A stretch of DNA of 32,321 nt from an uncultured Candidatus Saccharibacteria bacterium. Its GTDB lineage: Bacteria > Patescibacteriota > Minisyncoccia > Phycocordibacterales > VMEP01. Under the pieces are notes generated by a model, which had not been told where the DNA came from, ran no database searches, and was given only the letters and a program-made list of their open reading frames with translations. Shown in pieces: positions 10,209 through 22,529 of this stretch. The stretch covers positions 1-32,321 of the forward strand of contig CAYHZS010000002.1 of NCBI GenBank assembly GCA_964361185.1. The letters are read 5' to 3'. Made by a program: the position numbers and the translations under genes. Numbering within the stretch: the stretch's first letter is position 1; each line of letters begins with the position of its first letter.

Positions 10209-10865
10209 TTAAAGATACTTTTCGAGTTCAAGCAGGGAGGAGAGCTGCGGGCAATCAACGCCATCGTTTTTTTCTTTGATATTCACTAAAATACTTTTTA
10301 CTCCTATATTTTTTGGAACTTCATAGTCACTCATAACCCTGTCGCCGATATAAAGGAAATTTTCCGGAGGCAAATCATAAAAAGACAGCCATATTTTATA
10401 AGCTGAGCCGTCTGATTTTGAAGCGTCATCTTTAGTGATAATGTGGCTGAAGATTTCTTTGCCGATGTCGAGCTTCTTAAGTTTTCTATGGGTTATTGAA
10501 CCGTTAGATCCGGTGATTACATCCAAATTTTTATATTTTTCTTTAAGTTTTTTTAAAAGATTTATAGTCTCCGGGTTTGGAACGAGGAATGAGGCTATGT
10601 CGGCCCTCTCGAGCGCTTCCTGGACGATTTCTTTTCCGTTTGGTATCTCCAGAGTCGCAAGCGCCTTGCTCCCTCCCATACCCGCTCCATCTTTGTAAAG
10701 ATCGGCGAAAAGCGCCCTCGCCTCTCCCAAGGAGCACTTTTTGCTCGCGGCAATTTTTTCATAAATATATTTTTGAATTGCCTCGTCAATTTCCGGCGAT
10801 TTCGGATACAGAGTCTGGTCAAGATCAAAGCCAATGACTTTAGTTTTATTTTTGTAATCAATCAT
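10209..10865 (-). CDS. HAD-superfamily hydrolase, resembles pyrimidine 5'-nucleotidase (SDT1-like) subfamily
   Basis: FDLDQTLY motif I, ITGSN motif II region and YIGDRVMSD motif IV. Its ATG overlaps the stop of the upstream 803-aa gene (ATGA). Confidence 0.75.
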   Translation of the reverse strand: MIDYKNKTKVIGFDLDQTLYPKSPEIDEAIQKYIYEKIAASKKCSLGEARALFADLYKDGAGMGGSKALATLEIPNGKEIVQEALERADIASFLVPNPETINLLKKLKEKYKNLDVITGSNGSITHRKLKKLDIGKEIFSHIITKDDASKSDGSAYKIWLSFYDLPPENFLYIGDRVMSDYEVPKNIGVKSILVNIKEKNDGVDCPQLSSLLELEKYL

Positions 10866-13273
10866 TGTGTAAAAGCGACGTAAAACAAAGAAAGGTTCCC
10901 AAGGGGATATCCAAGTGTTTCACTGAATTTTGTCGATATATAGTTTAGTAATTCAAGGTCTTCTTTTTGTTTGCTAATGGAATGGTTCATAAAGACTGCC
11001 GTCGCGTGTACTTTACCGCCCATTACGTTCGCCTGGAAGAACGCCAAATAGTCTCCCTGAGGGTCCATTTTTCCGGCTTTGTACTCCGTTAAAATAGGAT
11101 TATTATGCATTACTCCTTTTTCTTTAAGATAGAAAATAGCTTTTTCAATTGTGTTTACACCCTCCATATTTTCCAGCCGGTCGAGAATAAAATTATTTGG
11201 TCGCGAAGCTATTTTCTGAAGAGGGACAAAGCTATAAGCAACACCGGTTTCATTCGCCAAAGGAAACTTGGTGTTTTCGGCTAGCTGGTATGGTCCGCTT
11301 TTTGAATCAATTTCATCCATCGGTTTAGATGGTTCGCTCATCAGTTTTTTAGACCGCTGTTCTTCAGTCAGAAGGAGTATGTTTGCTCTACTTGATAACA
11401 TATACATATCTCCGGGTTTCGCGCCGAGTTTCTCTCTAACGGTGCATATATAAGCGTCATGAAGACCAAATATATTTTCGGGGTACGCATTCACGGTATT
11501 ATGGGCGCGAGCTATGTGAAATGAGTGCAGATGTCCGTTTTGCAGAAAAAAAATATCATGAGTAAGGCACGGGTCGTGCGTGTACTTTGTTTTGCCGGTG
11601 TCCGGGTCGGTATAGCTTCTCATGTCTTCTACCGGGTCAAAGCGCTGTATTATAGCGGCTCTAGTCGGATTATTTTTTAGAACAAGGGCGGTTTTAGGGA
11701 GCTGATCAAAGCCAAAAAACACCCTCGTGCGTTCCCCGTAGCTATAGTCGCCATCATGGTCAAAACGCAGAAGCTGGGCTTTGTAAGCCTCACGTATTTC
11801 TTCAGTACTTCTCTCTCCCTGTTTGTATATTGCCGAAAGCGAGGCCAGCGCTTTTGCGGCATTGCGGTAAATCGCGAGCATTACCGCGGAACGAGCCGAC
11901 CCTTTTTGCTTATCGCCGTGTTCTTCCGTAAGTCCTTGAGTATATATTTTCATAAGGACTTGCTTATGTACGTCTAAAAAATTATCCCCGTCGGCTATGA
12001 GTAGGGGAAGACTCTCCGTATTAATCTTGAAAATGTTTGGGAAGTCTTGAATAAAAGCGTAATTAAACGAAGCGGCTATGGTGGCCCGGCCGATTTGCCC
12101 ACCAATGTCAATTCGGTGCAGTATGTCCATTTCGTAGTTCTCAAAGCGGTTATTTTCGGACAGCCATTCAAAAAGCCCGCCGATTTTTAGAGATCGCAGT
12201 TCGAAAACTTCCTCGCAGACATCAAAAGCGAGGCACATTACCGCTACTTGGCTCTCCCTTACGTTAATTTTGTAATAATATTTTTTATCGGTTATGAGAG
12301 AAACTTTTGATTCAAGCATTATTTCTTTTTGCCCGGTAAGGTTCTTTGATTTCACGAAAGAAGGGAATTTTATTTCATTTTTTATCTCCGCGCTTACGCG
12401 GGCAATTTCCGCTCCCAGGAAAAACTGGTTTAAGTTGCCTATTTCTTTTTTCCTGTCGCCTAAAAATTTCATAAGGGAATATTCAAGCAAAAATTCGTCC
12501 GGACTTTTTATAAAAAAAGTGTCTTCACCTACCCTGATATCCAGGCGGATTAATCCTTTTTTGTTTTGCACTATAAAATCAACTTCAGGGACAAATTCTT
12601 TCGGAGGTATGTCTATTTTGGGTGGTTGCAGATGCTGAAATTCTTTCGGGTCAAGCTCCACAACTCCGCGTTCTTTAGGCGCGGATGCTCCAAGGAGAGA
12701 CACAAGCTTGTTCAATGAGTCGTAATATATTTTCCCTGTTTCGTTCGCTTCTTTCAAAAATTCATATACGTCTGATGGCAGTTTTGGACGCGCCCATTCC
12801 AGATAGTCAATGACTATCTTCTTGCCGTAATCGTTCTTGTACATGAACATCGGTAGGACTGTTATATTGTCGCGGAATGAATCCACTATTTTTTCGGAGA
12901 GGCTCGGGTAGTGTGACGAGGCCGCCTTGCCGTTTATTATCTGGTGGTCGCGGTCTTCGATGTTGATTCCATACTGAAGCGCCAAGAGAAGATTCGTGCT
13001 TGGTGAAAAGGTGAGCGACTCCTCGGAGAAAAGTATGAGATATGAGAGCGTGGGGTGGGACAGGGAATTTAGTATCATTCTTTCGGCCCCATCCCGGCTT
13101 ACGATAAGAGAACCCAAGACCGAAACAAAACGCCGTTCCTTTCCCTCAAGTTCATTCAGCACCTGTCCCGGGGCGGTGGTGTTGGTGCAGATGCCTATAA
13201 AACCGTCTTTACCCTCAGGTGGAGTTAAGAGAAGCGCATCCACTATCGGGAATTGGGAAATTTTTACAGCCAT
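10862..13273 (-). CDS. 803-aa fusion of an MtrA-like domain, two DUF4346-like modules, a thymidylate-synthase-fold domain and a degenerate TS-like C-terminal segment
   Basis: Residues ~1-165 (nt 12779-13273) align by eye to MtrA: G.L....DGAE..I.NSLSHP.LSYLILFSEES...L..GI......I.G. Residues ~228-412 (nt 12038-12592) hold two modules ending FLGAEIARVSAEI and RIDIGGQIGRATIAASFNYAFIQD. Residues ~425-640 (nt 11354-12001) carry YGER...FDQLPKTALVLKNNPTRAAIIQRFDP...DPCLTHDIFFLQNGHLHSFHIARAHN...YPENI, with the Cys codon at 11567-11569. Confidence 0.7.
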   Translation of the reverse strand: MAVKISQFPIVDALLLTPPEGKDGFIGICTNTTAPGQVLNELEGKERRFVSVLGSLIVSRDGAERMILNSLSHPTLSYLILFSEESLTFSPSTNLLLALQYGINIEDRDHQIINGKAASSHYPSLSEKIVDSFRDNITVLPMFMYKNDYGKKIVIDYLEWARPKLPSDVYEFLKEANETGKIYYDSLNKLVSLLGASAPKERGVVELDPKEFQHLQPPKIDIPPKEFVPEVDFIVQNKKGLIRLDIRVGEDTFFIKSPDEFLLEYSLMKFLGDRKKEIGNLNQFFLGAEIARVSAEIKNEIKFPSFVKSKNLTGQKEIMLESKVSLITDKKYYYKINVRESQVAVMCLAFDVCEEVFELRSLKIGGLFEWLSENNRFENYEMDILHRIDIGGQIGRATIAASFNYAFIQDFPNIFKINTESLPLLIADGDNFLDVHKQVLMKIYTQGLTEEHGDKQKGSARSAVMLAIYRNAAKALASLSAIYKQGERSTEEIREAYKAQLLRFDHDGDYSYGERTRVFFGFDQLPKTALVLKNNPTRAAIIQRFDPVEDMRSYTDPDTGKTKYTHDPCLTHDIFFLQNGHLHSFHIARAHNTVNAYPENIFGLHDAYICTVREKLGAKPGDMYMLSSRANILLLTEEQRSKKLMSEPSKPMDEIDSKSGPYQLAENTKFPLANETGVAYSFVPLQKIASRPNNFILDRLENMEGVNTIEKAIFYLKEKGVMHNNPILTEYKAGKMDPQGDYLAFFQANVMGGKVHATAVFMNHSISKQKEDLELLNYISTKFSETLGYPLGNLSLFYVAFTQ

Positions 13274-15574: not shown

Positions 15575-17146
15575 ATGATAAGGGATTTTTTAGAGAATGA
15601 AATACGCGGCGCCTCCACTAAACTTTTTGCCGAAGCCGGTAGTTTTAACGTTTCTTTGGATGGACGTTTTGGGGATTACACCACAAATGTGGCGATGGTA
15701 ATTGCTTCGGGCGAAGGCAAAAAGCCTAGAGAAGTGGCGGAAGCAATTCTTGGCGAACTTTCAAAAAATAAAAAAATTAAAAAAGCGATTTCCAAAATGG
15801 AAATTGCGGGGTCGGGATTTATAAACTTTTTTCTAGCCGACGAGGCGATATGCGATGAGCTTGAGATTTTGGAAAAGAAAATAAATAAAGGATACGACTT
15901 TCTCCACGGCAAGAAAATTAATGTTGAGTTTATCTCCGCTAACCCCACGGGGGAACTGCATATCGGTCACGGGCGAGGGGCTTTTTATGGGGACATACTG
16001 GGGAATGTGTTTGTTTTTTCTGGGGCTCGTATTATTCGTGAGTATTACGTCAACGATTCTCGCGAATCAAAACAGATAATAGAACTCGGCAAGACGGCAC
16101 TTGGTACAGGTGAGCAGTATAAGACCTCAAAACTGCTTGAGATTATTAAGGAAACGGATTTTAGCGGAATGGATGAAAAGGAAGCCGGCTTCAAACTGGC
16201 GGGGCTGATACAGGAGAAAACTGAAGAGTTCATAGAGCAGAAACTAAAAATATCCCACTTCAATTGGTACTCGGAAGATGAAAAGTTGAGTGCTTCTGGG
16301 TTAAACGATAAAGTGCTTGCTGATCTTGAGGAAGAAAAGTTTATTTACCGAAAAGATGGAGCCGTATGGCTGAAAACAAGTGAATATGGAGACGATGAAG
16401 ACAGGGTAATAGTCCGCTCCGACGGCACTAAAAGCTATTTTCTTTCTGATATTTCTTATCACAACGATAAATTTGTTGGAGGGTACGACAAAGTTATAAA
16501 TATCTGGGGCGCCGACCATCACGGGCATGTGAAAAGGATGCAGGCGGTGAAGAAAATGTTCGGCTGGAAGGGCGAACTTAAAATTTTTATTACCCAGCTC
16601 GTGTCGCTTAAAGAAAACGGCGTTTCTGCCAAAATGTCCAAGCGCGCGGGCAATGTCGTGCTTCTGGAAGATTTGGTGGACGAATTTGGTCTTGACGTGG
16701 TGCGTTGGTTTTTTTCTGAGAAATCGCTTAACACCCACATGGAATTTGATATGGCGCTCGCGCGCGAACATTCCGCCAAGAATCCCGTTTTCTATGTGCA
16801 GTACGCGCACGCGCGCATTTGTTCAATTTTAGAGAAAACAAAATCGTATTCGCCGGACGGGAGCGGAATAAGCGATATCGTCAAAGAAAATGTCGCACGT
16901 GCGCTTGCGGTAAAGCTTTTGGAATTTCCCGAAGTTATTTCAGGAATCGCTGAAGACTATCAGGTTCATAGGCTGACAACTTATGTTTACGAACTCGCCT
17001 CGGCCTTTGCGCAATTTTATGAAAAGATACGCATAGTGGGGGACGAAAATTATAATAGGGGCGCGCTTCTTCTTGCGGAAAATGCAAAAAACACATTATC
17101 GAAATCGTTAAGCTTACTCGGCATTTCCGCGCCAGAGAGGATGTAA
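15575..17146 (+). CDS. argS: Arginine--tRNA ligase
   Basis: SANPTGELHIGHGRGA (HIGH), MSKRAGN (KMSK-like) and YVQYAHARI are ArgRS signatures. Confidence 0.95.
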   Translation: MIRDFLENEIRGASTKLFAEAGSFNVSLDGRFGDYTTNVAMVIASGEGKKPREVAEAILGELSKNKKIKKAISKMEIAGSGFINFFLADEAICDELEILEKKINKGYDFLHGKKINVEFISANPTGELHIGHGRGAFYGDILGNVFVFSGARIIREYYVNDSRESKQIIELGKTALGTGEQYKTSKLLEIIKETDFSGMDEKEAGFKLAGLIQEKTEEFIEQKLKISHFNWYSEDEKLSASGLNDKVLADLEEEKFIYRKDGAVWLKTSEYGDDEDRVIVRSDGTKSYFLSDISYHNDKFVGGYDKVINIWGADHHGHVKRMQAVKKMFGWKGELKIFITQLVSLKENGVSAKMSKRAGNVVLLEDLVDEFGLDVVRWFFSEKSLNTHMEFDMALAREHSAKNPVFYVQYAHARICSILEKTKSYSPDGSGISDIVKENVARALAVKLLEFPEVISGIAEDYQVHRLTTYVYELASAFAQFYEKIRIVGDENYNRGALLLAENAKNTLSKSLSLLGISAPERM

Positions 17147-17181
17147 TAACTAGTTTTTAGCTATTAGCTTATAGCTTTTAG
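17147..17181 (+). repeat. Heptad array K: TAACTAG TTTTTAG CTATTAG CTTATAG CTTTTAG
   Basis: Five 7-mers start immediately after the argS stop. Confidence 0.7.
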
Positions 17182-17273
17182 TAAATACAAAAACCTGCAA
17201 CTTCTTTTTTTGTTGACACCATAAGTGTATTCTTGTAGCTTTTGTTTAGTGATTTTTAGATAAGGGGGCGCAC

Positions 17274-17678
17274 GTGCCACAAATTGCTCGCTGTAACAGC
17301 TACGTTCTTTATCGGCACTCTGGTTCTGGGGGAACGAAGTTCGCCCGGCCAGGTGAAGAGTTGCCCGAATCAATAGAAGAAGGCGTTTGGGAAGCACTTG
17401 CCGAAGACAATATCAAGGCGACTGACACAATTCCTGTTTTAGTACAGGCGGAAGACTATGTTCTCAGATTCAACGTGAATTCCATTCCCGAAGAAGGTCA
17501 GTTATTCAATTTTCGTCAGGTGGGGACAGATGAGTTCCCATCCTCTGGCCTGTTTCGTGTTAAAGAGGTCTGGATAGTCAACAACGACGCGTATTGTGTA
17601 AGTGTCGCCAGACTCAGCGACGTGGATCCCGGGAGCTTGATTTTTGATCTGGAAGTGTACTCATTGGGCCGAGTTTGA
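17274..17678 (+). CDS. Hypothetical protein, 134 aa, GC-richer orphan (GTG start)
   Basis: SD AAGGGGG lies 5 nt upstream of the GTG at 17274. A strong terminator follows. No family was recognised. Confidence 0.5.
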   Translation: MPQIARCNSYVLYRHSGSGGTKFARPGEELPESIEEGVWEALAEDNIKATDTIPVLVQAEDYVLRFNVNSIPEEGQLFNFRQVGTDEFPSSGLFRVKEVWIVNNDAYCVSVARLSDVDPGSLIFDLEVYSLGRV

Positions 17679-17689
17679 GAGTTTCCCCG

Positions 17690-17727
17690 CACCGGACACA
17701 CTATAACTATATGTGTCCGGTGTTTTT
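17690..17727 (+). terminator. Intrinsic terminator after the orphan
   Basis: CACCGGACACA pairs with TGTGTCCGGTG across an 11-nt loop, followed by TTTTT. Confidence 0.8.
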
Positions 17728-17763
17728 CATTGGGCGATTTCCTGTGTTAGTATCTAAAGATAT

Positions 17764-20700
17764 ATGGACAAAAAAGATTCCAACGAAAAAAGAAAATCAG
17801 AAGTGGCGCTTACTGAAGAGCGTATTTTGGCCGGCTGGAAAGAAAAAAAGATTTTTGAGAAAACTCTTGAAAAGACCAAGAACGGTAAGCTGTTTGTTTT
17901 TTACGATGGCCCGCCTTTTGCGACAGGAGAGCCTCACTACGGGCATATTTTGGCAGGCACGATAAAAGATGCCATTCCGCGCTACCGCACAATGACGGGG
18001 CGGTATGTGAGGCGCCAGTGGGGTTGGGACTGTCATGGTCTTCCTGTTGAAAATATCATAGAGCAGGAACTCAAACTTTCTCACAAAAAAGACATAGAAG
18101 AATATGGCATAGGCAATTTCAATGAAGCGGCGCGGAGTGCCGTGCTTAGGTTTGATTCATTTTGGAAAAAGGCGGTACCGAGACTTGGGCGTTTCGTGGA
18201 CATGGATTTGTCGTATAAAACTATGGATGCCTCTTATTCTGAATCAATCTGGTGGGCGTTTAAAACTCTTTACGACAAAGGGCTCATATATGAAGGACAT
18301 AAAGTAATGTATGTCTGTCCCAGATGCGAGACACCAGTCTCCAATTTTGAGGTGGCGCAGGGGTATAAAGATACAACCGATATTTCGGTGACAGTGGAGT
18401 TTAAGTTGGTTGATAGTCCCGGCACATCTTTTCTGGCGTGGACTACTACGCCGTGGACGTTACCGGGCAATGTGGCTCTTGCTGTGGGTAAAGATATCGA
18501 CTATGTGACGATTGAGAAGAAAGACGAAGGTGTCGGAAAGAAAATTCGGTTCATTCTTGCGAAAAGTCGCCTTGAAACAATTTTTGCGGGGCAAGAATAT
18601 GTCATTGTGGCCGAGCACAAGGGGATGGATTTGGTTGGCATCAAGTATGTGCCACCCTTCGATTACTACTATAAAGATGAGTTATTAAATAACCGCGAAA
18701 ATGGTTGGAAGGTCTACGCGGCAGATTTCGTTTCAGCAGATGAGGGCACAGGCATAGCTCACGAAGCCCCAGCGTTTGGCGAGGATGACATGAATTTAGG
18801 CAACGAAGTTAAGTTGCCATTTGTCCAACACATAGAGATGGATGGACGATTTAAACCGGAGGTCAAAGATTTTGCCGGCATGTATGTAAAACAGAAAGAC
18901 GATACGCAGTCGGCGGATGTGGAAATCATAAAAAATCTGGCCAAGAGAAATCTGCTTTTCGCCAAAGAAAAAATAATCCATCCGTACCCAATGTGCTGGA
19001 GATGCGACACGCCTCTTCTCAATTACGCCACTCCGTCTTGGTTCGTTAAGGTAACGAAATTCCGCGACAAGGTCGTTTCAGAAAATAAAAAAGTCTGCTG
19101 GGTGCCGGAGCATGTGGGAGAAGGAAGATTCGGCAAATGGCTCGAAGGCGCGCGCGATTGGGCTATTTCACGTTCGCGCTATTGGGGCGCGCCTTTGCCC
19201 GTTTGGAAATGCCTGGAATGTGAAAAGGTTGAAGCGATAGGGAGCATAGAAGAGTTAAAGAAAAAAATTCCTAAAAGTGGCAATCGTTATTTTGTTATGC
19301 GCCACGGCCAGGCGGAAAGTAATGTTTCCGGGACCAATGATTCCAATGGTAATCCCGATAATCATCTTACGGAGAGCGGGAAGGAAAGTATAAAACTTGT
19401 CGCTAGTAAACTCTCTAAAGAAGGAATAACCCGTATCATAACGTCACCCTTCCCCCGCGCCAAAGAAAGCGCGGACATTATAGCGAATGAGCTAGGATTA
19501 TCGGAAGAGAAGATTGTATCAGATAGGCGCTTGATTGAATTCAATCATGGCTCCAAAGGTCAAGGTAAAACAATAATGAATAACACCTTAGAACCTTTTA
19601 ATGAAAATGATTTATATGTTAGGCATGGCGATGGTGAAAATCACGCAGAAGTCAGGACAAGGGTAGTTTCAGCTATATTCGACGCGGACAAAACATATAA
19701 GAATGAAACTATTCTCATAGTCACGCACGGTTCTCCCATGTGGATGCTTATTGCCGGAGCTCTAGGCATGAGCGACAAGGAAACACTGGAATATCAGAAA
19801 AAGCGTGCTAAAAATAATGGGGATTATTTCATCTCAAACGGCCAGGTTGAGGAGGTTGATTTTACACAGTTTCCTCACAATAAGGAGTATGTTATTGATT
19901 TACACCGCCCGTACATAGACGAGGTGATTTATGATTGCTCTTGTGGAGGAACGATGAAAAGAATTCTGGACGTTTTTGACTGCTGGTTTGAATCGGGGTC
20001 AATGCCTTACGCGCAGTTCCATTATCCATTTGAGAACAAGGAGGAATTCAAGAAAAATTTTCCGGCTGATTTTATTGCTGAAGGTCTCGACCAAACGCGC
20101 GGTTGGTTTTACAGCCTGATTATTTTGGGCGTCGGGCTTTTTGGAGAAACACCATACAGAAATGTCATCGTGAACGGACTGGTTTTGGGAAGTGACGGGC
20201 AGAAAATGTCCAAGCGTCTCAAGAATTATCCGGAAGTTATGGATGTGGTGGATAAATACGGCGCTGATTCTTTGCGATATTACCTCTTATCTTCTCCAAT
20301 AATGCGCGGGGAAGACTTGGTATTTTTGGAAAAAGGAATTGATGAAATATACAAGAAAAATATTTCCCGCCTCAATAATGTTTACTCTTTTTACGAATTA
20401 TATAAGGGAGACGAAAAGGGAAGCGACACTTCGGAAAATATTCTGGATAAATGGATTATCGCGCGCCTGAATGAACTTAAAAATGTAATGACCGAGGGGA
20501 TGGAAAAATACGAGCTTGATAAAGTGGCGAGGCCAGTCGCGGATTTTATTGACGATCTTTCCACATGGTATATCAGGCGCTCGCGCGAAAGATTTAAATC
20601 AGACAATGAAAATGATAAAAAAATGGCGCTTGAGACAACCCATTTTGTGCTTGAGGAATTTTCCAAGCTCATTGCCCCGCTTATGCCGTTTATAGCGGAT

Positions 20701-21261
20701 GATTTGTATTTGAAAGTTACACGTGGGGAAAAAGAAGAAAGCGTGCATTTGGAATCTTGGCCCAGTAACAACGGACAACGAACAACCAACAACCAACAAG
20801 TAATACAAGAAATGCAAAAGGTGCGTCAAATTGTTTCGCTTGGACTTGAGGCGAGATCGAAGGCGGGGATAAAAGTGAGGCAGCCGCTTCAAAACTTAAA
20901 ACTCAAAACTCAAAACTTAGAACCTGAATATATTGAATTAATTAAAGATGAAGTAAATGTGAAGGGAGTTACTTTTGATGAAGAGATTGAAAATGAAGTT
21001 GAATTGGATACAAATATTACACCAGAACTAAAAGAAGAAGGCGATGTTCGCGATTTAGTACGCGCTATTCAGGATTTCAGAAAAAAGGAAGGTCTTACTC
21101 CGAGCGACAAGGTTGCGCTTTTGGTTTCCTGCGACGAAAAAACAGCTTCTTTGATAAAAAAGAATGAAGATGAGTTAAAGCACTCAACTCTTTTAAGTCA
21201 TATATCCATTTCAAACTCCGACGGAGAAACTTCTTTCCAGGTGCTTAATCCGGGGTCGTAA
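17764..21261 (+). CDS. ileS: Isoleucine--tRNA ligase (type-2-like) carrying an inserted histidine-phosphatase domain
   Basis: PHYGH (HIGH), WAISRSRYWGAPLPVW, DQTRGWFYS and KMSKRL are IleRS signatures. At 1165 aa it is longer than expected because of the insert at 19285-19860. Confidence 0.95.
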   Translation: MDKKDSNEKRKSEVALTEERILAGWKEKKIFEKTLEKTKNGKLFVFYDGPPFATGEPHYGHILAGTIKDAIPRYRTMTGRYVRRQWGWDCHGLPVENIIEQELKLSHKKDIEEYGIGNFNEAARSAVLRFDSFWKKAVPRLGRFVDMDLSYKTMDASYSESIWWAFKTLYDKGLIYEGHKVMYVCPRCETPVSNFEVAQGYKDTTDISVTVEFKLVDSPGTSFLAWTTTPWTLPGNVALAVGKDIDYVTIEKKDEGVGKKIRFILAKSRLETIFAGQEYVIVAEHKGMDLVGIKYVPPFDYYYKDELLNNRENGWKVYAADFVSADEGTGIAHEAPAFGEDDMNLGNEVKLPFVQHIEMDGRFKPEVKDFAGMYVKQKDDTQSADVEIIKNLAKRNLLFAKEKIIHPYPMCWRCDTPLLNYATPSWFVKVTKFRDKVVSENKKVCWVPEHVGEGRFGKWLEGARDWAISRSRYWGAPLPVWKCLECEKVEAIGSIEELKKKIPKSGNRYFVMRHGQAESNVSGTNDSNGNPDNHLTESGKESIKLVASKLSKEGITRIITSPFPRAKESADIIANELGLSEEKIVSDRRLIEFNHGSKGQGKTIMNNTLEPFNENDLYVRHGDGENHAEVRTRVVSAIFDADKTYKNETILIVTHGSPMWMLIAGALGMSDKETLEYQKKRAKNNGDYFISNGQVEEVDFTQFPHNKEYVIDLHRPYIDEVIYDCSCGGTMKRILDVFDCWFESGSMPYAQFHYPFENKEEFKKNFPADFIAEGLDQTRGWFYSLIILGVGLFGETPYRNVIVNGLVLGSDGQKMSKRLKNYPEVMDVVDKYGADSLRYYLLSSPIMRGEDLVFLEKGIDEIYKKNISRLNNVYSFYELYKGDEKGSDTSENILDKWIIARLNELKNVMTEGMEKYELDKVARPVADFIDDLSTWYIRRSRERFKSDNENDKKMALETTHFVLEEFSKLIAPLMPFIADDLYLKVTRGEKEESVHLESWPSNNGQRTTNNQQVIQEMQKVRQIVSLGLEARSKAGIKVRQPLQNLKLKTQNLEPEYIELIKDEVNVKGVTFDEEIENEVELDTNITPELKEEGDVRDLVRAIQDFRKKEGLTPSDKVALLVSCDEKTASLIKKNEDELKHSTLLSHISISNSDGETSFQVLNPGS
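19285..19860 (+). other. Histidine-phosphatase (PGAM/CobC-like) domain embedded in ileS
   Basis: RYFVMRHGQAESN (RHG motif), SPFPRAKESA, LIEFNHG..GQGKT, GENHAEVRTRV and ILIVTHGSPMWML (second His motif). The segment lies between KCLECE and DCSCGG. Confidence 0.8.
20765..20799 (-). repeat. Heptad array E inside ileS: GTAACAA CGGACAA CGAACAA CCAACAA CCAACAA
   Basis: Five 7-mers on the C/A strand (complement TTGTTGG TTGTTGG TTGTTCG TTGTCCG TTGTTAC). They encode SNNGQRTTNNQQ. Confidence 0.75.
20891..20925 (+). repeat. Heptad array F inside ileS: AAAACTT AAAACTC AAAACTC AAAACTT AGAACCT
   Basis: Five 7-mers that encode QNLKLKTQNLEP. Confidence 0.75.
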
Positions 21262-21383: not shown

Positions 21384-21951
21384 AAAACGCGTATTTATCG
21401 TACATGGGTGGGGAGGAAACTCAAAAGAAGGCTGGTTTCCTTGGCTAAAAAAAGAACTTGAATCACGCGGTTATGAGGTTTTTGTTCCTGATATGCCTGA
21501 CACCGAAAATCCGCGTATCGGGGCGTGGATTTCGTATTTGGAAAAACTGATAGGCGAACCTGACGAACGGACATATTTTGTCGGACATAGTATAGGGTGC
21601 CAGACAATTTTAAGATATTTAGAAAAATTGCCCGACAGTAAAAGAGTTGGCGGGTGTGTTTTCGTGGCCCCATGGTTTACTCTTATGAATTTAGAAAAAG
21701 ACGAAGAAAAAGTTGCCGAGCCGTGGATAAAAACCCCGATTGATTTTATCAAGGTTAATCAGCATACGGATTATTTTATGGCAATTTTTTCCGACAATGA
21801 CGACGTAGTTCCCTTAAACAATAGAGAGATGTTCGCGCAAAAACTGAGCGCCAAAACTATTCTGGAGAATGGAAAGGGCCATTTCAGCGGAGGAGACGGA
21901 ATTACTGAATTAACAAGTGTTCTATCGGCGGTTTTGGAAATTTCTTCATGA
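21358..21951 (+). CDS. Alpha/beta serine hydrolase, YdeN/RBBP9-like
   Basis: VFIVHGWGGNS...GHSIGC nucleophile elbow. Length is ~197 aa. Its ATGA overlaps the recO start. Confidence 0.8.
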   Translation: MVLTSNGTRKRVFIVHGWGGNSKEGWFPWLKKELESRGYEVFVPDMPDTENPRIGAWISYLEKLIGEPDERTYFVGHSIGCQTILRYLEKLPDSKRVGGCVFVAPWFTLMNLEKDEEKVAEPWIKTPIDFIKVNQHTDYFMAIFSDNDDVVPLNNREMFAQKLSAKTILENGKGHFSGGDGITELTSVLSAVLEISS

Positions 21952-22529
21952 GTCATTTTATATACAGAACCGAAGCAATTATTCTTGGCGAAATGCCTAG
22001 TGGGGAAGATAACAAGATTTATTTTTTGCTAACCGAGGATTTGGGGTTCATCATGGCGCAGGCTACGGGGGTGCGTCATCTAAAATCAAAACTCCGTTTT
22101 CATTTATCGCTTTTCTCAAAAATCGGGGTTGAGCTTGTCCGCGGAAAAAACATCTGGCGGATAATCAACGTTTATCCGCGTGAGAAGGAGATTTTTTTTA
22201 AAACTAAGTACGTGAATATTTTCGCGCGTTTGGCGCAATTAATCCGGCGTATGGTGCATGGGGAGGTGCAAAATAAAAAACTCTTTGACGATGTACTACA
22301 AACAAGGATGTTTCTTGCCGAAAACATTCTTTCTAATAAGGAAGAAACTAGTGTAGAACTTATATCCGTTGCCCGAATTTTAAATTCCTTGGGTTATTTT
22401 ATCGCAGAAGGAAAGTATCAATCTATTTTGTACGGGCACATTGAGAAAGGAATACTTCGTAGGGCGTTATTACTTAGAAACGATTTGGTGAATGATATCA
22501 ATCTCGCGCTTAAGGAAAGCCATTTGTAA
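21948..22529 (+). CDS. recO: DNA repair protein RecO (short form, 193 aa)
   Basis: The N-terminal OB-fold pattern YRTEAIILGEMPSGEDNKIYFLLTEDLGFIMAQATGVR is typical of RecO. The C-terminal region is shorter than in classical RecO. Confidence 0.6.
   Translation: MSHFIYRTEAIILGEMPSGEDNKIYFLLTEDLGFIMAQATGVRHLKSKLRFHLSLFSKIGVELVRGKNIWRIINVYPREKEIFFKTKYVNIFARLAQLIRRMVHGEVQNKKLFDDVLQTRMFLAENILSNKEETSVELISVARILNSLGYFIAEGKYQSILYGHIEKGILRRALLLRNDLVNDINLALKESHL

Follow-up and report, generated by a model that had tools for sequence, protein, structure and literature searches.

The stretch of DNA analysed here (the window) comprises 32,321 nucleotides of contig CAYHZS010000002.1 from an uncultured Candidatus Saccharibacteria bacterium (assembly GCA_964361185.1). 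It carries ileS::HP, a gene for an isoleucyl-tRNA synthetase (IleRS) in which a histidine-phosphatase (HP) domain is nested. Such a domain had been proposed in a preliminary description made from the letters and translated reading frames, and this was borne out, as the Pfam model His_Phos_1 (PF00300) matches with an E-value of 6.4e-30 and has tRNA-synt_1 on either side of it. All of the peptides quoted in that description are present, including VIDLHRPYIDEVIYDCSCGGTMKR...WFESG, and the frame is continuous as stated, with a single open reading frame (ORF) running from 17764 to 21261. The features of the gene are given below; homologue counts out of 120 refer to the nearest homologues, namely the 120 best database matches (55-65% identity, 1149-1231 residues), and CP stands for connective peptide.

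17764..21261, plus strand: ileS::HP, a continuous ORF of 1165 residues encoding a type-2 IleRS with a nested histidine-phosphatase domain
17764..19266, plus strand: N-terminal part of IleRS, residues 1-501, aligning to residues 13-477 of 8c8u
17932..17946, plus strand: HIGH-type signature PHYGH, residues 57-61, by motif match
19210..19221, plus strand: first cysteine pair of the CP3 zinc knuckle, C483-x2-C486, each cysteine present in 115/120 homologues
19267..19878, plus strand: insert relative to insert-less IleRS, residues 502-705, from the PDB alignment and an alignment with insert-less Patescibacteria IleRS
19291..19791, plus strand: match to Pfam His_Phos_1, residues 510-676, 104.7 bits against a cut-off of 21.7
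19300..19308, plus strand: RHG motif R513/H514/G515, with H514 the predicted phospho-accepting nucleophile
19456..19458, plus strand: R565, predicted second phosphate-binding arginine, in 222/222 inserts
19537..19539, plus strand: E592, predicted general acid in an E-x-x-x-G motif, glutamate in 216 and aspartate in 6 of 222 inserts
19726..19728, plus strand: H655, second catalytic histidine, motif T-H-G-S-P, in 221/222 inserts
19879..21261, plus strand: C-terminal part of IleRS, aligning to residues 481-853 and 907-1010 of 8c8u
19936..19944, plus strand: second cysteine pair of the CP3 zinc knuckle, C725-x-C727, kept in 115/120 and 111/120 homologues
20203..20217, plus strand: KMSKS-type signature KMSKR, residues 814-818, by motif match

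The synthetase, the insertion site and the phosphatase domain

By every available sequence and structure test the host enzyme is a type-2 IleRS. The whole protein scores 897.5 bits with the NCBIfam model TIGR00392 ileS (cut-off 621.4), and its Pfam architecture is tRNA-synt_1 split by His_Phos_1, followed by Anticodon_1 (residues 895-1043) and DUF5915 (residues 1051-1159). The type-2 assignment follows from the presence of DUF5915 and from the best PDB sequence matches, which are to IleRS2 and to yeast or Candida IleRS (E-values of about 1e-231 to 1e-215), IleRS1 enzymes reaching only about 1e-89. The AlphaFold2 model of the full-length protein (pLDDT 91.7, pTM 0.87) is weak only at the N-terminus and at residues 600-620; in Foldseek it superposes on IleRS2, yeast and Thermus IleRS with TMt values of 0.79-0.87, the best matches being 8c8u (E 1e-86, TMt 0.82) and 1ile (TMt 0.87).

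Residues 1-501 provide the first half of the Rossmann fold, the CP core, the CP1 editing domain, CP2 and the first half of CP3, and the C-terminal part provides the second halves of CP3 and of the Rossmann fold, the KMSKR signature, the anticodon-binding domain and the type-2 C-terminal domains (DUF5915). Across the 120 homologues H58, G60 and H61 of PHYGH are invariant, as are K814 and K817 of KMSKR. The editing motifs of CP1 are found at residue 226 (WTTTPWT) and residue 328 (GTGIAHEAP), with W226-N236 and H333 again invariant, and the editing segment matches the isolated editing-domain structures 1wk8 and 1wny. We conclude that the IleRS part is canonical and predicted to be editing competent. 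It is presumably the housekeeping enzyme of the cell, and no second ileS was found within the 32-kb window. Two specialised kinds of IleRS were considered and rejected: the MupA and MupB mupirocin-resistance enzymes (NF000257 and NF000258, 739 and 766 bits against a cut-off of 1900) and IleRS with a GNAT domain (NF040702, 308 bits against 1999), the window protein having no GNAT match in Pfam.

The phosphatase segment had been placed at 19285-19860. Its place was correct; its exact limits were not, since the alignments give the slightly wider span 19267-19878, which holds the entire histidine-phosphatase domain together with short linkers. In the alignment with 8c8u, query residues 17-501 pair with chain residues 13-477 and query residues 706-1075 with chain residues 481-853, and about 204 query residues stand in place of about 3 in this solved IleRS2. 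The insert-less IleRS of other Patescibacteria have 10-17 residues at the insertion point, and none of the solved IleRS structures compared has a phosphatase insert. When placed on the domain map of the Candida and Thermus enzymes (PMC7191050), the insertion site is in the CP3 subdomain, which joins CP2 to the second Rossmann half, bears a zinc motif in Thermus thermophilus and varies in topology among IleRSs (PMC7191050). The insert separates the cysteine pair C483/C486 from C725/C727 and thus splits the CxxC...CxC zinc knuckle, as had been noted.

The GC content of the insert is 0.422 and that of the remainder of the gene 0.433. No direct or inverted DNA repeats were found in 19100-20050, nor any intein/Hint or homing-endonuclease domain, Pfam detecting only His_Phos_1 in the insert. 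With no repeats, no such domains and no compositional break, a mobile element or intein was ruled out.

The excised segment 19285-19860 alone matches PF00300 with an E-value of 1.8e-31. It had been stated that both catalytic histidines are intact, and they are also kept in homologous inserts (His514 in 222/222, His655 in 221/222), together with both arginines and the Glu/Asp; the arginine and histidine of the RHG motif are in addition conserved in 136/136 stand-alone copies and in 12/12 copies at extra sites. An AlphaFold2 model of the insert alone (pLDDT 92.6) retrieved PspA, GpgP, PhoE, a histidine-family phosphatase of the riboflavin pathway, CobC and cofactor-dependent phosphoglycerate mutases (dPGMs) with Foldseek, all with probability 1.00 and TM scores of 0.6-0.77; the hits to 4ij5 and 4ij6 have E-values down to 1.8e-13 and TM scores of 0.70-0.77. 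Searching with the insert profile gave E-values of about 7e-24 for PhoE (1ebb/1h2e) and 5e-23 for PspA (4ij5).

The domain had been described as PGAM-like. Membership of the histidine-phosphatase family stands, and identity with a true phosphoglycerate mutase does not, the domain being PhoE/PspA/CobC-like instead. With the models NF038349 and TIGR01258 the insert alone reaches 79.4 and 23.1 bits, the cut-offs being 225 and 81.7, and the dPGM motifs E-R-x-Y-G and H-G-N are missing; the motifs of the family, E-I-N/D-T-G-x-F-D-G-K and T-H-E/G-Y/S-P, are of the phosphatase sub-group type and not the 'HGN' of dPGM. The part of Rigden's review that is relayed in PMC2737285 holds that most superfamily members labelled as mutases are really phosphatases. 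The insert alone is also below the curated cut-offs for the alpha-ribazole phosphatase CobC (TIGR03162, 72.8 of 162.9 bits), PspA (NF045917, 60 of 350 bits) and SixA (TIGR00249, 42.5 of 74.5 bits), and it is likewise far below that of the GpmB model. We conclude that the domain, to judge by its motifs, is a branch-1 histidine phosphatase of the PhoE/PspA/CobC-like kind and a generic predicted phosphomonoesterase. Conserved residues and the predicted fold indicate that it is apparently catalytically competent.

The copy in the window has private insertions (K598, LYVRH at 617-621 and AKNN at 682-685) that are absent in 112-119 of the 120 homologues. The loop at residues 600-620 (19561-19623) is the sole low-confidence part of the phosphatase domain in the AlphaFold2 model.

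Distribution, recurrence and the stand-alone gene

The preliminary description had suggested a search of related genomes for the same insertion, and it was found in all 120 of the nearest homologues and in 18 GTDB species-representative loci. The nearest homologues come from NCBI, JGI, ENA and Logan assemblies and are labelled Patescibacteria, Parcubacteria, Paceibacteria, Yonathbacteria, Lloydbacteria or Minisyncoccota; one homologue with the nested domain is on a 680-kb contig. A profile of the insert matched 360 representative proteins (50%-identity clusters) at E<=1e-30, and the best 150 of these 360 are mostly IleRS or IleRS fragments with the domain at the same site. In the survey of GTDB species representatives we took the best 80 IleRS2 loci, located with a full-length alignment. 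A single insert is present in the 18 loci just mentioned, which include Nomurabacteria, Wolfebacteria, Yanofskybacteria, Minisyncoccia and Paceibacteria, and every non-Patescibacteria IleRS2 looked at among these GTDB loci lacks an HP, both inside the gene and within 4 kb of it. It can be seen that the segment is indeed an insertion and not a general part of IleRS, as it is absent from solved IleRS, from many Patescibacteria and from all the non-Patescibacteria loci. The view that the domain looks functional rather than like junk also held, the widespread architecture and the conserved catalytic set arguing against an assembly chimera or junk sequence, which we regard as ruled out for practical purposes. 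The distribution across these sequences indicates that the nested phosphatase is a vertical feature of a large Patescibacteria clade.

Some irregular loci were seen in the survey. In one Yanofskybacteria locus (L062, 3983-7460) ileS::HP consists of two overlapping ORFs that part within the phosphatase domain, either because the gene is really split or because of a frameshift or an error of assembly. Two contigs with a Patescibacteria-type ileS::HP (L018 and L022) are filed under metagenome-assembled genomes named 'Spirochaetia' and 'Gammaproteobacteria', probably through binning contamination or automatic mislabelling.

The domain is also found in multiple copies and at other sites. Two tandem HP domains are present at CP3 in some IleRS (P0243 and P0258), and the three GTDB representatives of Peribacteria/Peregrinibacteria L031, L034 and L036 encode IleRS of 1465-1487 residues with two tandem HP domains in CP3, an arrangement that appears to be lineage-wide there. 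Some IleRS have two or three copies, part of them at other loops, and P0180, P0202 and P0228 are examples with copies at such loops; these additional insertion points are past the second cysteine pair, between WFESG and ADFIAEG in the second Rossmann half, and at the start of the anticodon-binding domain.

Valyl-tRNA synthetase (ValRS) is a second host. One ValRS, P0121, has four copies, and among the 119 ValRS relatives listed for it 70 have between one and three; where an HP-bearing ValRS has a source name it is Gracilibacteria or Peregrinibacteria, on contigs of up to 1.37 Mb. The domain usually starts about 28 residues past WxISRQ..WG, at a position equivalent to CP3, and there is a second insertion site upstream of the motif. 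All 80 of these ValRS copies retain the Arg-His pair. Around one ValRS relative that lacks the domain, no HP gene was found within 6 kb and, on this one locus, adjacency does not explain the ValRS nesting.

Other domains also occur in these large proteins. A few of the ValRS relatives (the P0389-P0507 set; L002/L003) also list DUF559 (PF04480) or HU (PF00216) domains. In P0214, an IleRS of 1066 residues, an in-frame IS200-like Y1 transposase domain (residues 340-461) interrupts the editing region; the CP3 site of the same protein holds an HP, and a GNAT acetyltransferase domain follows WFESG. This protein suggests that the large synthetase genes of Patescibacteria are hot spots for domain insertion.

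The search with the insert profile also gave about 25 proteins of 190-210 residues with scores equal to those of inserts, and a search with one of these stand-alone proteins (P0224) found 305 such proteins in Patescibacteria. At all eight stand-alone loci on adequate contigs (L004, L006, L008, L010, L041, L093, L094 and L095), a gene for a stand-alone HP of 189-199 residues lies immediately upstream of an insert-less ileS of 931-974 residues, the two genes being 1-130 nt apart or overlapping. The order at these loci is smpB, argS, variable genes, HP, ileS, variable genes, recO, a gene for a surface protein and one for a class II synthetase. The window has the matching order of argS, ileS::HP, recO, a DUF11 protein gene and a class II synthetase gene, minus the upstream phosphatase gene, and a fused relative (L012) likewise has the same order without that gene. 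The two flanking markers in the window are as follows.

15575..17146, plus strand: argS, matching Pfam Arg_tRNA_synt_N, tRNA-synt_1d and DALR_1, the conserved upstream neighbour
21948..22529, plus strand: recO-like gene with a RecO_N match, the conserved downstream synteny marker

Where relatives have the phosphatase as a gene of its own, it sits between argS and ileS, and the downstream order with recO is repeated in L006, L008, L010, L012, L093 and L094. The insert of the window and a stand-alone copy share 36% identity (E 2e-21), and the stand-alone copies have the catalytic set in 136/136 cases, with Asp for Glu in 106. As read from sequence and gene order, this is a Rosetta-stone relationship, with two genes conserved as a pair in certain lineages and fused by nesting in others. 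A neighbour-joining tree of the HP domains separates a clade of stand-alone (operon) copies, a nested Paceibacteria clade and a basal group of ValRS, Peregrinibacteria and tandem copies; the tree is too crude to count insertion events and is used here only qualitatively.

The spacer between argS and ileS in the window (17147-17763) is 617 nt long, compared with 20 nt in the fused relative L012. It contains an ORF on the plus strand (17274-17678; 134 residues, GTG start) that has no Pfam match and is not phosphatase-like. A T-box or other regulatory RNA in the spacer was considered and discarded, as an Rfam scan of the window yielded tRNA-His only. Between ileS and recO the window has an alpha/beta-hydrolase gene of the Ser_hydrolase family (PF06821; 21358-21951, plus strand), while in L012, L094 and others recO follows ileS directly or a different small gene lies between them. 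At a Nealsonbacteria-type locus (L008/L009, 4597-5959) a pair of genes resembling a diversity-generating retroelement, encoding a bAvd accessory protein and a reverse transcriptase, lies between argS and the stand-alone phosphatase gene. Elsewhere in the window, an ORF of about 802 residues on the minus strand (10862-13273) has no Pfam match at E<=0.001.

Comparison with known enzymes

All IleRS modules of the Priestia megaterium IleRS2 (8c8u) and the Thermus thermophilus IleRS (1ile), two enzymes of the eukaryote/archaea-like, mupirocin-resistant type 2, are present and alignable in the window protein, and CP3 has a four-cysteine zinc knuckle like that of the T. thermophilus enzyme. Unlike these solved enzymes, which have few residues between the CP3 cysteine pairs, the window protein has a 204-residue enzyme domain there. 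With the broad-specificity phosphatase PhoE/YhfR of Geobacillus stearothermophilus (1h2e/1ebb) and the phosphoserine phosphatase PspA of Hydrogenobacter thermophilus (4ij5) the insert shares the branch-1 fold, the catalytic set and the motif E-I-x-x-G-x-W/F-x-G-K; however, identity to them is only about 24-27%, and they are free-standing whereas the insert is nested in another enzyme.

Few enzymes are as strongly conserved as the aminoacyl-tRNA synthetases, and new catalytic domains in their cores are rare; the CP1 editing domain, which is central to translation fidelity, is the one well-known case. Like CP1 of IleRS, ValRS and LeuRS, the phosphatase would be a hydrolytic domain nested in the connective-peptide region and giving a second catalytic site, here a predicted one (CP1 domain maps of class Ia synthetases are given in PMC7191050 and PMC11685878). 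However, CP1 is universal and acts on mis-acylated tRNA, whereas the phosphatase is lineage-restricted, belongs to an unrelated superfamily and is in CP3. There is also a curated IleRS with an extra enzyme domain, NF040702 (ileS_w_GNAT), in which the domain family differs; the relative P0214 described above has both HP and GNAT. A CobC/PhoE-like domain fused to a nucleic-acid enzyme is known in the RNase H/acid phosphatase proteins (NF005567, PRK07238, the Mycobacterium Rv2228c type), but there the fusion is end-to-end and not nested in a synthetase, and the insert reaches 72 bits against a cut-off of 326.

Our literature search found no description of a phosphatase within an aminoacyl-tRNA synthetase, and a phosphatase is not mentioned in a 2026 survey of 96,219 IleRS domain architectures or in the AARS Online paper. 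The sequences are public and bear automatic Pfam labels. Because the phosphatase is nested in IleRS, NCBI gives such proteins the generic name 'class I tRNA ligase family protein'.

Explanations for the association of phosphatase and synthetase

The explanation we favour, with a probability of about 0.55, is that the protein is a bifunctional enzyme, an IleRS joined to a PhoE/PspA-like phosphomonoesterase, and that the association with the isoleucine and valine class Ia synthetases is itself selected. The phosphatase would hydrolyse phosphomonoesters via a phospho-His514 intermediate. It would be an old partner of IleRS in Patescibacteria, encoded in many lineages by a separate gene immediately upstream of ileS; in the lineage of the window this partner gene would have turned into a nested domain and the upstream gene would have been lost. 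Physical and stoichiometric coupling of the phosphatase to these synthetases would be under selection, because the nesting is repeated at several sites, in several copies and in two synthetases, which makes it unlikely that simple read-through or neighbour capture occurred so often. We infer that the phosphatase, placed beside the synthetase, acts on a ligand that bears a phosphate and is connected with the aminoacylation/editing cycle. Our first preference for that ligand would be a nucleotide such as 5'-AMP or another small phosphomonoester by-product of the cycle, ahead of a terminal phosphate on tRNA and, in third place, a phospho-residue on the synthetase. The preliminary description had offered, as speculation, a tRNA 3'-end phosphate, an adenylate analogue or a signalling nucleotide as substrates. 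The tolerance of varied insertion points suggests that proximity rather than precise geometry matters.

Several observations weigh against this explanation. Closely related IleRS from Moraniibacteria, Falkowbacteria, Uhrbacteria, Magasanikiibacteria and Gottesmanbacteria have no HP inside the gene or within 4 kb, and because several Patescibacteria lineages thus lack an HP near ileS, the IleRS-phosphatase partnership is dispensable. The streamlined gene order of Patescibacteria also joins unrelated genes (smpB, argS and recO), so adjacency alone is weak evidence of shared function. Insertion at several different places speaks against any need for exact positioning with respect to the synthetic site, the Glu is missing from 26/80 ValRS copies and the second His from 9/80, and no named phosphatase sub-family reaches its curated cut-off. 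Were the phosphatase useful in its own right and the nested copy the sole one, its catalytic residues would be conserved even with no link to IleRS.

That last point leads to the main rival explanation, possible though in our view doubtful, that would not need to invoke any cooperation with IleRS: the phosphatase would serve housekeeping or metabolism on its own account, for instance as a broad-specificity enzyme for sugar phosphates or as one acting on phosphoserine or 3-phosphoglycerate. Its gene, lying by chance beside ileS in a conserved block, would have been carried by local rearrangement into a permissive surface loop and would be kept as the only copy, fusion guaranteeing merely co-expression. 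The nearest solved or curated relatives (PspA, PhoE, GpgP, CobC and the riboflavin-pathway phosphatase) are all small-molecule phosphatases, the stand-alone gene lies within a block of functionally unrelated housekeeping genes (smpB-argS-HP-ileS-recO), and the fused lineage has no upstream copy. The structural variability of CP3 among IleRS (PMC7191050) means that it probably tolerates insertions, large synthetases harbour unrelated domains as well (IS200-like, GNAT, DUF559 and HU), and the existence of related IleRS with no nearby HP is in keeping with such a chance association. However, a passive transfer accounts poorly for the same domain family being nested repeatedly, at several sites and in one to four copies, in both IleRS and ValRS; the HP-less ValRS relative had, at the one locus, no adjacent HP gene that could be a local source; and nesting in an internal loop is much rarer than end-to-end fusion, yet it is found here in hundreds of sequences.

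A bolder proposal is that the nested or operon-linked phosphatase constitutes a third catalytic site of the isoleucine and valine class Ia synthetases in Patescibacteria with a translation-specific job, which may be to strip a blocking phosphate or pyrophosphate from the tRNA 3' end or to reverse an inhibitory phosphorylation of the synthetase. We consider this unlikely and, to our knowledge, an activity of this kind has been described for no aminoacyl-tRNA synthetase. The repair form of our favoured explanation, in which the domain removes a blocking phosphate and so restores chargeability, is in our estimate very unlikely; its target would be a 3'-phosphate or (pyro)phosphate on the CCA end of tRNA, or a residue of the synthetase phosphorylated by a toxin kinase. 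Consistent with repair, two enzymes that charge tRNA have the domain anchored in their catalytic core (CP3), some proteins have a further copy where the anticodon-binding domain begins, on the face that binds tRNA, the branch-1 members Det1 and YOR283w strip terminal phosphates from oligonucleotides in vitro (PMC2737285), and the curated RNase H/acid phosphatase NF005567 joins an HP to a nucleic-acid enzyme, the insert being below its cut-off at 72 bits. Nevertheless, no nucleic-acid-specific feature was found in the domain, its close structural neighbours all act on small molecules, and our literature search found no link of the superfamily to tRNA ends. The stand-alone copies are basic, with a median pI of about 10 where nested copies have about 6.2, and this was considered as a sign of RNA binding; the argument was dropped because the IleRS, the ArgRS and most of the neighbouring proteins encoded by the same genomes are just as basic, reflecting a proteome-wide bias. 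Moreover, mending tRNA-Ile or tRNA-Val alone would be no rescue from a general toxin of tRNA ends.

We also weighed an assembly chimera or a decaying insertion, that is, a recently acquired inert piece of a neighbouring gene. The private small indels (at K598, 617-621 and 682-685) and the low-confidence loop of the model would fit it, but we find it hardly credible given that the architecture is common to hundreds of independent sequences, that the reading frame is continuous with equal composition inside and outside the insert, and that the catalytic residues are invariant in a fold predicted with high confidence.

Three arrangements link the apparently active phosphatase to IleRS: a gene just upstream, a domain nested in the enzyme, and several such domains in one protein; ValRS is a further host of the nested domain. 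Together these cases cover a large part of the Patescibacteria, whose genomes are minimal, so that a gene which has been kept can be expected to be of importance. The system is directly testable, with the excised domain, insert-less relatives and stand-alone homologues as natural controls. Were a third catalytic site to prove real, it would amount to a built-in repair or anti-toxin activity, or to an allosteric link between a phospho-metabolite pool and the charging of branched-chain amino acids. A functional coupling would point to an unknown step connected with isoleucine and valine tRNA charging in Patescibacteria; a coupling without function would make the locus a clean natural example of a neighbouring gene becoming a nested domain in an essential enzyme.

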